A DNA stretch of 64,000 bases from Chlamydiota bacterium (GCA_048498835.1 JBEHXF010000003.1:516-64515), one strand, 5' to 3'. Counted from the stretch's first letter, positions 13,842 through 22,710 are shown. Notes: a model not told the origin generated them from the sequence alone. Numbers and translations are program-made.

Positions 13842-13892
13842 GAGAAACTCCGGGTGTATGATTCGAATATACGACCAATGGATTAACAGTCC
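13842..13892 (-). repeat. Displaced 3' fragment of tRNA-Asn (att repeat, left end of island)
   Basis: 51 bp matches 22660-22710 with one mismatch (T versus C in gattcgaaYatacg). Confidence 0.9.
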
Positions 13893-14126
13893 CCACCCGG
13901 TCGCAGCGTTCGTTTGCCTTAGGTCACCCTAAATTACCTTAAGCAGCATAAGTCTATAGTAGAAACCAGGTTTTGGGCCAGACTCTTTTGTCAACCTTAA
14001 GCAAGTCAAGACAATCCAGGTTAATCGCCTACTCCGTTGGATTTCCGGCAATTTTACTATAAGACATTCATGAGAATTATAGCCGCGTAGAGAAGGCCTT
14101 TTCTAAAAAAATATCTTGCCTTGAAA

Positions 14127-14146
14127 TTTACATAAGCTTATGTAAA
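14127..14146. promoter_or_regulatory. Perfect 20-bp palindrome upstream of hicA (candidate HicB operator overlapping promoter)
   Basis: tttacataag|cttatgtaaa ends 11 nt before the hicA ATG. ttgaaa (14121-26) and taaaaa (14143-48) could be the -35 and -10 boxes. Confidence 0.5.
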
Positions 14147-14157
14147 AATATAGACCC

Positions 14158-14340
14158 ATGAAGAAGCTAGATCTTATCAAGCAGCTTGGGCAGTATGGGT
14201 GGACGCTTTTGCGGCGAGGAGGATCGCACGACATATGGACTAATGGGAAAATCCTTGAACCTATTCCTCGCCATACTGAAATTGCTGAATATCTGGCAAA
14301 AAAAATATTGAGAAAAGCAAAGGAGAATCCACCTGAATAG
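14158..14340 (+). CDS. hicA: HicA-family mRNA interferase toxin
   Basis: 60 aa. ..LGQYGWTLLRRGGSHDIWTNGKILEPIPRHTEI.. is the HicA/YcfA pattern (GSH, ..P.H). Confidence 0.85.
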   Translation: MKKLDLIKQLGQYGWTLLRRGGSHDIWTNGKILEPIPRHTEIAEYLAKKILRKAKENPPE

Positions 14341-14352
14341 AAAGGGGGCTAA

Positions 14353-14784
14353 ATGGAACTACAAGGAAATATCTGGAAGGAAGGAAGCTTTTGGCTGGTT
14401 GAAGTTCCCGCTTTGGATTTAACAACCCAAGGCGAGACTAAAGAAGAAGCTTATAAAATGATTAAAGAAGCTTCTGAAGAACTAACCCGATTGTATTTCA
14501 AAAGGGAGGATGCTGAAGAATTTGAAATCACTGTTATCAGCTATGGTAAAGATGTTTTCGCGATCACTTCAAATAACGTACAACTTCTTATGTCTCTTTT
14601 ACTTAAAAGACAAAGAGAAAAGAGCGGAACTACGATTCAAACCGCGGCTGAACGACTTGGCTCAAAATCACCAAATGCATATGCACAATACGAAAAAGGT
14701 CATACTAACGTCAGCGTTGTAAAATTCGAACAACTATTAGACGCTGTGAACCCAGATAATGACCTCAAACTTACTTTAATTTGA
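14353..14784 (+). CDS. hicB: HicB-family antitoxin with C-terminal XRE-type HTH
   Basis: N-terminus GSFWLVEVPALDLTTQGETKEEAYKMIKEA is HicB-like. C-terminus RQREKSGTTIQTAAERLGSKSPNAYAQYEKG is an HTH. It starts 12 nt after hicA. Confidence 0.8.
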   Translation: MELQGNIWKEGSFWLVEVPALDLTTQGETKEEAYKMIKEASEELTRLYFKREDAEEFEITVISYGKDVFAITSNNVQLLMSLLLKRQREKSGTTIQTAAERLGSKSPNAYAQYEKGHTNVSVVKFEQLLDAVNPDNDLKLTLI

Positions 14785-20094: not shown

Positions 20095-20312
20095 TAGTTC
20101 CCCCTCGCAATATTGGTTTCTTTGCTTTTTTCTAAATAAGAGAGAAAGGCCTCTTCATCTAGAAGAATAAGCCGACCTAACTTGCAGACAACCTGCTTTC
20201 TAAAACCTCTTCGGTCTTTAAAAAGTAAGTTTTTCAGCATGTTCTTAGTAAGAAAGGGGTATTTTTCGATCGCTTGCTTTTTTGTGAGGTAAGATTTTGA
20301 ACTACTCTCCAC
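20094..20312 (-). CDS. Excisionase/AlpA-like HTH protein
   Basis: 72 aa. YLTKKQAIEKYPFLTKNMLKNL....KLGRLILLDEEAFLSYLE. The stop overlaps the start of the downstream gene. Confidence 0.6.
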   Translation of the reverse strand: MESSSKSYLTKKQAIEKYPFLTKNMLKNLLFKDRRGFRKQVVCKLGRLILLDEEAFLSYLEKSKETNIARGN

Positions 20313-20436
20313 CAGTCCTCCTGGGTTAGATGGTTTACTGACTTCTCGTGCCGGAGAATTCCTTAAAAAACCAAAACGAACTCAAGATTAATCAGGATTG
20401 CAAAGCGCCAAAACGTCTTTGATTGGGGCAAAATTT

Positions 20437-21390
20437 TTAGGTATAAATACTACCATTAGTCAAGTAAGCCTCTTCAAGCCATTTTCTAGTAACCCACTGC
20501 ATGATTTGACAAAGGACAGGATGGAATGCGAATCTTTGTGTGAAAAGCTTAACAAACTTTGAGTGAATAATTTCATTCAAAGTCCACCCTAAAACCTTTA
20601 GAATTCTCGTTAAACTAGACAGGGCAAATCTAATAGCCAAAAAATTCACTCCTCTTTCAGAAAATATCTCAGGAATCTCTACAGGCTCTCCAAGAGGCAA
20701 GCCTTTTATCAGCCGATGATCGCGCTTCTTCCTTTTTTCGGGCAAAAGCGGGAAAACGGGCCTCACCCAGTTTTGGACATTACGAGTGTTCCTCCCTTGC
20801 AACTCTAAAAGATCAAAGAAAGGAGATCGTTTGCTCAACAACTCTTGCGTCAGATCGGCAATTGTTCTTACACTCTCCCCACGCAAATCGAACAAAACTT
20901 GAGCTGCACATTGTACTGCAATCACATGCTTTTGGGGCAAAGACAACCCTGAGCGATCTCTATGGAGGCCCACTCTCTCAAACACATCTTTCTCATATCC
21001 CTGAAGCGAGACATCCTGTTCTAAAGCAACCTTAAAAAAGCCAAACCAGTCTGATTGTTCATTTATAACTTTTTGTTTTGAGAAGCGCTTTTCACACAAC
21101 ACAAGAGAACGTACAAGAGACTCACTGCTTGTATCCTTTTTTAAGGTCTTTTTTCCCTCAATTTCATATGTTAAACCAAAAAAACTCTTCTCCAGTCCAT
21201 CTAAAACTTCAATCAATTGCTCCATAAACCCATCCGCAGGGTATAGACTTAGAAGCATCTCTGTTGGTGCTGATAAGGACAGTTCTGGGAAATGATTGGT
21301 CGATTTTTCTAATGCAGAAATTGCTTTAATATCTTCCTCGATTTGTTCTTTTAATTCAGACGATATAGCCAAATGCTTTAGATCACTCAT
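20437..21390 (-). CDS. Hypothetical protein (island-encoded)
   Basis: 317-aa ORF whose start overlaps the integrase stop by 8 nt. No motif recognised. Confidence 0.55.
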   Translation of the reverse strand: MSDLKHLAISSELKEQIEEDIKAISALEKSTNHFPELSLSAPTEMLLSLYPADGFMEQLIEVLDGLEKSFFGLTYEIEGKKTLKKDTSSESLVRSLVLCEKRFSKQKVINEQSDWFGFFKVALEQDVSLQGYEKDVFERVGLHRDRSGLSLPQKHVIAVQCAAQVLFDLRGESVRTIADLTQELLSKRSPFFDLLELQGRNTRNVQNWVRPVFPLLPEKRKKRDHRLIKGLPLGEPVEIPEIFSERGVNFLAIRFALSSLTRILKVLGWTLNEIIHSKFVKLFTQRFAFHPVLCQIMQWVTRKWLEEAYLTNGSIYT

Positions 21391-22438
21391 TCTGGACTCC
21401 TTGGAAGATTTGTTCTGACATTTTGGATACTGCGTCTACCGACCGTGATTCAATAAGATGAGCGTACCGCCGTGTCATCGAAACACTCCGATGCCCTAGC
21501 AGATGCCCGATTTCCCCTAAAGAAAGCCCCTGTGCCAGCATTTCGGTAGCGTATGAGTGGCGTGCATCATGTGGTCTAAAATCTATCAATCCAGCACGTT
21601 TAATGGCTGTTTTAAGGGCTCTTCGGAATTCGAGCGGAGAGCCGCTATTTTGGCCTGGGAAGATATAGCCAAGCGAGGTTGCTTGGGATGCGAGAGTCCT
21701 TAAGAGCTCCAGAGCCAGACCTCGGATAGGAACAGAGCGCATATCGGAGTTTTTTGACTTGGTGATGGTAATCTTCCCCTGTGTGAGCTCAACATCTATC
21801 CACTTGAGACAGCGAATTTCGTTATAACGGCAGCCTGTACTTAAGAGAAGTACAACGAAGGTGAAGAGATAGGGATTACTGCTCTCTCGGCAGGCATCAA
21901 GAAAGCGAGAGCGCTCAGTGGGGGTAAGGAAGCGAGTGCGTTCACGAGATTCTTTCTCTCTAGAGATCTTGCGAACAGGATTTTCTACGATCCACTCCCA
22001 TTGCTTAACACAGATGCTCAGGAGGTGACTGAGAGTGGCTAAGAAACGATTACATGTGCTACCTGTACGCACCTTGCCTTTTGAATTGCGTTCAGTGAGA
22101 AGTTTTTGTTTCTTCTCAGCGATAAGGGATGGCCGGACATCTTGGAGATAGAGATTGCCTAGCTCTGCCCGCCACCAGTTTAGGTGGCCTTGTTTGGCGG
22201 TAGTGACCTTCTGCTCTTTGCAATAACGCTCCACAGCATCTTGAAAGGTACGGCGGCGAGCTTCTGGGTAGAGCTGTTGACGACCGCAGCGGATATCGGC
22301 TTCTGTCTTCTGAATCCATGCCTTGGCATCGGTCTTACGGTCAAACATGGCAGTGAGTGTTGGATGGCCTTTGAGGCGAACTTCTGCTTGGTAGCGTGTG
22401 CCACCGTCTTTGAGGGATCTTTCTCTGATATGACCCAT
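21383..22438 (-). CDS. int: Tyrosine recombinase / phage-type integrase
   Basis: Start taken at MGHIRERSLKDGGTRYQAEVRLKG (typical integrase N-terminus). Catalytic region LLSTGCRYNE..HDARHSYATEML..LLGHRSVSMTRRYAHL (R..H.R..Y). The ORF-track extension to 22651 is unlikely. Confidence 0.9.
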   Translation of the reverse strand: MGHIRERSLKDGGTRYQAEVRLKGHPTLTAMFDRKTDAKAWIQKTEADIRCGRQQLYPEARRRTFQDAVERYCKEQKVTTAKQGHLNWWRAELGNLYLQDVRPSLIAEKKQKLLTERNSKGKVRTGSTCNRFLATLSHLLSICVKQWEWIVENPVRKISREKESRERTRFLTPTERSRFLDACRESSNPYLFTFVVLLLSTGCRYNEIRCLKWIDVELTQGKITITKSKNSDMRSVPIRGLALELLRTLASQATSLGYIFPGQNSGSPLEFRRALKTAIKRAGLIDFRPHDARHSYATEMLAQGLSLGEIGHLLGHRSVSMTRRYAHLIESRSVDAVSKMSEQIFQGVQNE

Positions 22439-22659
22439 TTCGACTTCCTTACAAGCGTGACGATAGATGGTCCTTGGATAAGACGATCTTCGCGCTTGAA
22501 TTTCAGTTAGTTGAAAAGGATGTTCACATGATTGCCGTAAAGATAACGGAACCGACATCCTGCTTGGGTAATTTAAGGATTTTCCGTACTCCGGCAAGAT
22601 TACGGCATTTGGAGTTTTGGGGCGGTTTTTTTGAACCATTTTTAACCCCATTTTCTATA

Positions 22660-22710
22660 GAGAAACTCCGGGTGTATGATTCGAACATACGACCAATGGA
22701 TTAACAGTCC
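22660..22710 (-). repeat. att repeat (right end of island) within tRNA-Asn
   Basis: Matches 13842-13892. Covers 6 nt 3' of the tRNA plus tRNA positions 28-72. Confidence 0.9.

Follow-up and report, generated by a model that had tools for sequence, protein, structure and literature searches.

Tycheposons of Prochlorococcus occur in hosts without obvious routes for conjugation or transformation (Hackl et al., bioRxiv 10.1101/2020.12.28.424599). They are small, are integrated at tRNA genes by a tyrosine recombinase that leaves a partial tRNA at the far end, and combine a hallmark set of integrase, excisionase and primase/helicase with variable cargo. Here we describe an island of comparable architecture in a stretch of 64,000 nucleotides from a Chlamydiota bacterium (GCA_048498835.1, JBEHXF010000003.1:516-64515), the whole of which we call the window. 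The island spans positions 13842 to 22710 (8.8 kb) at a tRNA-Asn gene, and an earlier note, made from the sequence alone, had attributed to it a satellite- or P4-like layout. Judging from its sequence and from that of its relatives, it is probably a small integrative element that inserts site-specifically and replicates itself, present here in integrated form, and its family is widespread in Chlamydiales. The comparison with tycheposons was made by architecture, and the chlamydial family differs from them in the phylum of its hosts, in having its own orphan core gene for a 317-residue protein and in using only tRNA-Phe and tRNA-Asn in the loci seen.

Gram-negative phage-inducible chromosomal islands (PICIs) such as EcCICFT073 (PMC6092414) resemble the island in their series of int, a small activator/excisionase gene, pri/rep with an origin, and accessory genes, as well as in their size class and in the absence of virion genes. 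The island differs from them in that no terS, cos or interference genes are recognised in it, cos and pac sites being unrecognisable without a helper phage, and in that no helper phage is known. Further, its small DNA-binding protein, of 72 residues, shows no AlpA similarity, and its integrase gene is co-oriented with the replication genes, on which a gene for an XRE regulator converges. The Escherichia coli cryptic prophage CP4-57 (intA-yfjH-alpA-yfjI) has the same order of an integrase gene, a gene for about 318 residues, a small DNA-binding gene and yfjI, after which its cargo consists of toxin-antitoxin and defence genes. Toxin-antitoxin cargo, a site in a small RNA gene and a YfjI/DUF3987 homologue (25% identity, 5e-41) are shared as well. 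In contrast to the island, CP4-57 measures 22 kb, is located in ssrA and has no separate primase; moreover, the 317-residue protein of the island is unrelated to YfjH and, by profile comparison, its 72-residue protein is unrelated to AlpA.

The satellite phage P4 has in common with the island an integrase at a tRNA-type attachment (att) site, a Zn-ribbon/Toprim primase and iteron origins, which in P4 are bound by the replication protein. To this extent the P4-like layout proposed earlier stands, but a relationship to P4 does not. The two integrases align only locally (24% identity, E 0.002), similarity to the P4 alpha protein is limited to a Zn-ribbon of 56 residues, and the island has no counterparts of sid, psu, delta, epsilon or cI, as judged from Pfam, PHROGs and a comparison with the P4 annotation. 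We read the island as tycheposon- or PICI-like and not as a member of the P4 family.

Two kinds of chlamydial element have been described that come close to the island in size. One is a circular 9.1-kb plasmid in Estrella lausannensis, which reportedly carries a primase, a toxin-antitoxin pair, an integrase, an excisionase and ParA (PMC4333871); by analogy of gene content, it may be an episomal relative. Protochlamydia naegleriophila has strain-specific, integrase-bearing islands of 5.5–11 kb next to tRNAs (PMC5010888), which agree with the window element in size range and in lying beside tRNAs, in a comparison made by description; they were published as a list and not treated as a family. Beyond the Chlamydiota, an element of Legionella adelaidensis (NZ_LR134418; locus L129, 12001–17123) encodes an integrase with 42% identity, a homologue of the 72-residue protein and a 614-residue Toprim protein in the same order as in the island; it differs in lacking the 317-residue protein and in lying about 4 kb from the nearest tRNA gene, a tRNA-Met. 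The record NZ_LR134418 is labelled a plasmid, yet carries rpoD and dnaG. A literature search found no published description of the chlamydial family to which the window element belongs.

The island is bounded by two copies of a 51-nt direct repeat derived from a tRNA gene. This gene, the only one for a tRNA in the window, encodes tRNA-Asn(GUU) at 22666–22737 on the minus strand and is intact. ARAGORN placed tRNA-Asn(GTT) at 22665–22738 and Rfam (RF00005, 72.9 bits) at 22666–22737; the ends given by Rfam are borne out by the sequence, which has an acceptor stem UCCGGGU/ACCCGGA, a discriminator G and no encoded CCA, and by a drawing of the cloverleaf. The repeat starts at linear position 28, in the 5′ strand of the anticodon stem, and ends 6 nt downstream of the discriminator. 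Its tRNA-proximal copy (22660–22710) and its distal copy (13842–13892), both read on the minus strand, are 8,818 nt apart and identical at 50 of 51 positions. The sole mismatch, T13868 on the plus strand versus C22686, falls on linear position 52 of the tRNA, the canonical G53. The proximal copy keeps this G, whereas the distal copy, a displaced tRNA 3′ fragment, has an A, so that the closing pair of the T-stem, G53-C61, is lost and the cloverleaf energy rises from −23.8 to −21.9 kcal/mol. Rfam made no tRNA call at the distal copy and found no RNA in the island besides tRNA-Asn. A 29-nt piece of the repeat has two sites in the window, both in the att copies, and was matched in none of 100 shuffles; the island also has a lower GC content than the rest of the window (41.6% versus 46.4%). 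The earlier note had described the repeat with its single mismatch, its derivation from tRNA-Asn and the broken pair, and the repeat search, tRNA prediction, position mapping and cloverleaf energies uphold it on each of these points. The island is real, has clear boundaries and a core that looks intact, and is of an ordinary kind.

The gene abutting the tRNA is, as stated earlier, that of the integrase (21383–22438, minus strand; 351 residues), a tyrosine recombinase by its matches to PF00589 (5e-31) and PHROG 1 (8e-66). About 230 bp separate it from the tRNA-Asn 3′ end. The catalytic set, R204, K229, H290, R293, H316 and Y325, is complete, and these residues are invariant or nearly so in 38 aligned homologues. 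We placed the integrase start at 22438, rejecting an open reading frame (ORF) of 422 residues, because the homologues are all about 351 residues long. More than 350 homologues have 65–85% identity, and the named ones belong nearly all to Chlamydiales or to Chlamydiota metagenome-assembled genomes; by these names, the host is chlamydial. No contigs holding the exact RecD2 or the exact integrase protein of the window were found.

Between the integrase gene and the repeat lies an arm (22439–22659, minus strand) with the motifs CCGTAATCTTGCCGGAGTAC and TTCCGT-N7-ACGG and the ribosome-binding site of the integrase. Aligned across ten elements, it shows a mean column identity of 67% and long invariant runs. 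The distal arm (13893–14157) holds a second TTGCCGGA...CGGAGTAG motif at 14031–14051 on the minus strand, and on this strand of the window TTGCCGGA has only two sites, one in each arm of the island. A tandem second integrase beyond the distal repeat was searched for and not found.

The integrase gene is followed by two further genes of the core. The first (20437–21390, minus strand), whose start overlaps the integrase stop by 8 nt, encodes the 317-residue protein, which matched no family in Pfam, PHROGs, NCBIfam or PADLOC and is matched by 108 representative clusters among 1.84 billion proteins. Its structural model is all-helical (predicted local distance difference test, pLDDT, 67), with no significant fold match in the PDB or among viral models. 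Comparison with YfjH and with a 219-residue protein of Legionella showed no relation to either.

The second gene (20094–20312, minus strand) encodes the 72-residue protein, which the earlier note had called AlpA-like. By sequence this assignment fails: the window protein had no Pfam match, only 2 of 12 homologues matched HTH_17 (at E 0.05), comparison with the AlpA profile gave a probability of 0.1%, and a search against PDB sequences returned spurious matches to ribosomal protein L34 only. Its AlphaFold2 model (pLDDT 82.5) consists of a strand, three helices, a β-hairpin and a final helix, which corresponds to a winged helix-turn-helix. The top TM-scores in the PDB were to RdfS (0.62/0.66) and Tn916 Xis (0.54/0.63), with Foldseek E-values of 3.6–4.1, which are not significant. 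Given its position and fold class, the protein is a candidate excisionase or activator, and we regard a role as directionality factor or activator as likely, with moderate confidence.

The integrase, the 317-residue protein, the 72-residue protein and the arm of about 230 bp by the tRNA form a conserved core, which is present in dozens of Chlamydiales contigs beside tRNA-Phe or tRNA-Asn. In a metagenome scan with the integrase, which yielded 43 loci, the integrase stood about 230–300 bp after tRNA-Phe in 16 loci and after tRNA-Asn in two; two loci from other look-ups add a further case beside tRNA-Asn (L001) and one beside tRNA-Phe (L003). In 24 loci the integrase is followed by a homologue of the 72-residue protein (about 60% identity) and in 15 by one of the 317-residue protein. 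Six loci have a second att copy, which extends from tRNA position 28–31 to the 3′ end (29–50 nt) and delimits elements of 6.8–10.5 kb. The att copies of these bounded relatives show 0–2 differences over 46–50 positions. The slot after the gene of the 72-residue protein is taken by a replication module, which may be DUF3987 alone, a Toprim-DUF3987 fusion, Toprim-AAA_25-HTH, DUF5906 or Rep_O, and the family carries toxin-antitoxin pairs, acetyltransferases, kinases and secreted proteins among its cargo. The site formed by RecD2, tRNA-Asn and the integrase is occupied in two other genomes, where the replication gene is Rep_O or DUF5906 and the cargo is different. By these comparisons, the window island belongs to a modular family in which the integration core is fixed, the replication module can be exchanged and the cargo varies.

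All family contigs that retain sequence upstream of the integrase show the integrated form with a full tRNA. Among the integrase contigs of 8.3–8.5 kb, L134 and L135 hold a full tRNA-Phe, whereas a contig end falls within the att repeat of L130 and L132; no circle was seen in these four, and the att-truncated L130 and L132 cannot reveal one. A scan of a genome collection with RecD2 yielded only three chlamydial loci at 65–75% identity, the closest at 75%, and none of them was informative on an empty site. In L004, where RecD2 is 70% identical, the contig extends for another 546 bp past tRNA-Asn, and this stretch contains no integrase.

Some relatives have peculiarities of their own. The integrases of L111, L114, L115 and L122 are split into two frames, being either pseudogenes or products of sequencing errors, and some copies may be decaying. 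In L085, L095, L096 and L103, a TTGCCGGAG-like sequence, with which the integrase-proximal arm starts, is found just outside the distal att copy and may be a remnant of earlier tandem insertions, although these places yielded no second integrase. In the tRNA-Phe loci L134–L136, at about 5400–8300, trpR, a Trp/Tyr permease, a cyclase and trpD come after the core and are either cargo or flanking chromosome.

The crossover point can be narrowed down in L105, whose att copies (tRNA-Phe at 9702–9774, distal copy at 16519–16562) have only tRNA positions 30–48 in common, so that strand exchange must take place in the anticodon stem-loop or the variable region. The T-arms of the two copies differ by compensated changes (CCCGG/CCGGG versus GCTGG/CCAGT), which indicates that the element brings its own tRNA 3′ half; by its sequence, the half carried by the L105 element comes from another lineage. 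The anticodon stem-loop GGACTGnnAATCC is common to tRNA-Phe and tRNA-Asn, and in a neighbour-joining tree the tRNA-Asn-targeting integrases are nested among the tRNA-Phe-targeting ones; this accounts for the use of both tRNAs by one integrase family.

By this geometry, the working tRNA-Asn of the window would owe its 5′ half to the host and its 3′ half to the element, and after precise excision the host part would be joined again to the distal copy with A53. Since a copy with a broken G53-C61 pair would thus return to the chromosome, loss of the element may be selected against, and if tRNA-Asn is single-copy, cells losing the element would be at a disadvantage. The earlier statement that the island may still excise is plausible in that the core genes and both arms look intact, but it has to be qualified by the state in which excision would leave the chromosome. 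Once the displaced host copy of the tRNA decays, a host may be unable to lose such an element without damage to tRNA-Asn, and this dependence is a simple route by which a mobile element can become a fixed island.

The window island could itself have reached the end of this route, as an old, immobile insertion kept only because tRNA-Asn depends on the 3′ half that the element supplied. The distal copy without the G53-C61 pair, which the crossover geometry would rejoin on excision, is in agreement with such a remnant, as are the frameshifts in several family integrases of other contigs and the fact that neither a circular nor an empty form is on record. Nevertheless, we consider it rather improbable: the five core ORFs are all full length, the integrase retains all its catalytic residues, both arms retain the family motifs, and the repeats, with their single difference, have diverged to a similar degree as those of the bounded relatives.

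The island has its own replication module. The gene after that of the 72-residue protein (18484–20094, minus strand) encodes a YfjI/DUF3987 protein of 536 residues, a predicted replicative helicase or initiator. Its assignment to DUF3987, already made in the earlier note, is confirmed by PF13148 (4e-74), and it further matches PHROG 2373 'DNA helicase' (1e-48) and aligns over its full length with the CP4-57 YfjI mentioned above. DUF3987 has been predicted to be a helicase for mobile-element replication (Kazlauskas 2018, PMC5862659). A spacer of 152 nt separates this gene from that of a primase of 335 residues (17324–18331, minus strand; PHROG 47 'DNA primase', 2e-22). Of the Zn-ribbon and Toprim domains previously ascribed to the primase, the Zn-ribbon is recovered (PF08273, 1e-8; 38% identity to P4 alpha over its 56 residues). 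The Toprim match is below the cut-off, although the motifs VESEFD and DTDEAG, which provide the E and DxD of Toprim, are kept.

A putative origin (18348–18526) is located between the two replication genes. It is a cluster of seven TGCGAC sites, the outermost of which form a 15-nt inverted repeat, TTGCGACTTGCGACA, at both ends of the cluster, straddling the DUF3987 gene end. Of 31 TGCGAC sites in the whole window, seven thus fall within 18350–18526, where by our arithmetic about 0.09 would be expected from the window-wide density, for a motif that was picked after viewing the sequence. The iteron-like array noted earlier is therefore real. In seven relatives, too, clusters of short repeats directly follow the replication gene, with a repeat sequence that differs in most elements; most replication genes that were inspected have such a cluster behind them.

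For an integrative element of this kind, we propose the following cycle. Recombination by the integrase would join a tRNA-like attP on the element to the tRNA gene within the anticodon stem-loop, a segment that hardly differs between the two target tRNAs. The element would thereby supply the 3′ half of the working tRNA, and the former 3′ half of the host would be displaced to the far end. With the 72-residue protein as directionality factor, the integrase would also excise the element as a circle, which the YfjI/DUF3987 protein and the primase would replicate from the TGCGAC iterons as origin. The toxin-antitoxin genes hicAB would stabilise the element and the XRE protein would regulate it. 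Candidate routes between cells are packaging in phages or vesicles, mobilisation, and DNA uptake during co-infection of one host cell.

Several points weigh against such a cycle. The island encodes no transfer function, and the mismatch between the att copies means that some time has elapsed since insertion. As to the individual proteins, the excisionase role of the 72-residue protein is deduced from position, fold class and non-significant TM-scores, and the Toprim_2 match of the primase is under the Pfam cut-off, while origin function is deduced from repeat statistics and position.

Alternatively, the island might be a phage satellite in the sense of PICIs or P4, which stays integrated until a helper phage induces it and is then excised, replicated and packaged in helper capsids. 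The order of int, a small winged-helix protein, pri/rep and origin fits the PICI scheme (Fillol-Salom 2018, PMC6092414), the family elements of 6.8–10.5 kb are within the size range of known satellites, and capsid genes are absent from marine satellites as well (PMC9618062). The absence of phage structural and conjugation genes that the earlier note had reported is indeed borne out, as no island protein matched a virion, packaging, relaxase or secretion family in Pfam, PHROGs or NCBIfam. Satellite functions, however, are missing too: searches of the same databases and of PADLOC recognised no terS, cos-like site, capsid-redirecting or interference gene in the island.

The only hint of helper-phage transfer comes from a 30-kb contig classed as viral (L137/L140; IMG/VR UViG 3300010400_000021). 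Its segment 1–21447 carries the core of integrase, orphan protein and 72-residue protein and, beyond the core, a helicase, a primase, TerS, TerL, a DNA invertase, a 1655-residue protein and a second integrase. Because the core precedes TerS and TerL in this contig, some family members may use phage-type packaging. Against a satellite origin of the family, a capsid or portal match was absent in the 21 kb of this contig that were read, and it is the one of more than 40 family contigs that is present in the viral collection. The known chlamydial phages are small Microviridae, unable to hold 8.8 kb of double-stranded DNA. On balance, we judge it unlikely that the window island is a phage satellite.

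Turning from packaging to replication, the element could be mainly a plasmid, normally a free circle of 8.8 kb like that of Estrella lausannensis, of which a chromosomal copy is occasionally parked. The gene set reported for this plasmid (PMC4333871) points in this direction, as do the replication module, putative origin and hicAB of the window element, and YfjI-family genes are common on Legionella and enterobacterial plasmids. Yet no chlamydial match was found in a plasmid collection with the integrase, the primase or the 72-residue protein as query, and the island has no partition gene. The family contigs in which the question can be answered are all of the integrated form, as described above, whereas L130 and L132, beginning inside the att repeat, are uninformative on circles. 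We find a mainly episomal life distinctly unlikely for these reasons. A chance match or an error of assembly as the origin of the repeat, with ordinary chromosomal genes in between, can practically be dismissed, considering the result of the shuffles, the same geometry in six independent contigs and the lower GC content of the island.

Chlamydiota are obligate intracellular bacteria that are thought to have few routes of gene exchange. Gene flow among them is usually ascribed to plasmids, a few conjugative islands and recombination during co-infection. If the interpretation as a self-replicating integrative element is true, integrating replicons of 7–10 kb with exchangeable modules and cargo would be a further vehicle of this flow. 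Two points appear noteworthy to us, namely that a large family in chlamydiae has one integration core in common, and the effect that excision would have on the tRNA. The conserved integrase and arm, together with the near-invariant target in tRNA-Phe and tRNA-Asn, might also provide a tool for chromosomal integration in chlamydial research, where genetic tools are scarce. More speculatively, the elements could constitute a phylum-wide family of minimal replicons that supply the tRNA 3′ half themselves, switch their target between tRNA-Phe and tRNA-Asn via GGACTGnnAATCC, exchange modules and ferry cargo, with some members being satellites of undescribed tailed chlamydial phages and with the integrase and attP arm usable as an integration system; we offer this comprehensive picture only tentatively, as doubtful in its entirety.

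The remainder of the island holds the regulator and the cargo. The XRE-type regulator of 78 residues (16872–17108, plus strand), proposed in the earlier note, is confirmed by HTH_3 (1e-13). It resembles control proteins of restriction-modification systems (PADLOC Control_protein, 3e-21) and has homologues in four family loci. Two minus-strand ORFs come next, neither of which has a family match in Pfam, PHROGs, NCBIfam or PADLOC. In the first (16260–16859), the true start is likely M38 at 16748 (MNKLFLAFPMLLILMSPLHA...), which would give the protein a signal-peptide-like N-terminal segment; a promoter-like site with 11 of 12 matches precedes it at 16807–16780, from a scan for promoters and terminators that was not enriched over shuffles. 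The second (15908–16189; 93 residues) has a signal-peptide-like N-terminus and internal YSK/WGQ repeats. In both ORFs, the signal peptides were judged by eye.

A third cargo ORF (14804–15877, plus strand) encodes a protein of 357 residues, earlier described as PD-(D/E)xK-like. The basis for this description is a PD...ECK motif, and the assignment is unconfirmed, since the protein found no match in Pfam, PHROGs, NCBIfam, PADLOC or PDB sequences. The hicAB pair, also proposed earlier, is better supported in its toxin than in its antitoxin. HicA (14158–14340, plus strand) matches HicA_toxin at 9e-11, with 42 bits against a cut-off of 27. HicB (14353–14784, plus strand) has a C-terminal HTH_3 (3e-8), while its N-terminal domain shows a weak match to the HicB-like PHROG 497 (4e-4). 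Just upstream of hicA, a perfect 20-bp palindrome, TTTACATAAGCTTATGTAAA, at 14127–14146 overlaps a promoter-like site and is likely the operator of HicB.

Outside the island, two regions of the window stand out. At 10900–12000, between a large rpoC-like ORF and RtcB, a block of low GC content (32%) contains four small plus-strand ORFs of 64, 117, 67 and 79 residues, three of which were scanned and had no Pfam match; this block may be an older insert. At 25017–28500, three minus-strand ORFs of 180, 282 and 206 residues (GC 39.7%) are located between RecD2 and a gene resembling that of methionyl-tRNA synthetase (MetRS). Because RecD2 abuts MetRS in L001 and in the contig P0002, we regard this as another variable region, across the tRNA from the island.

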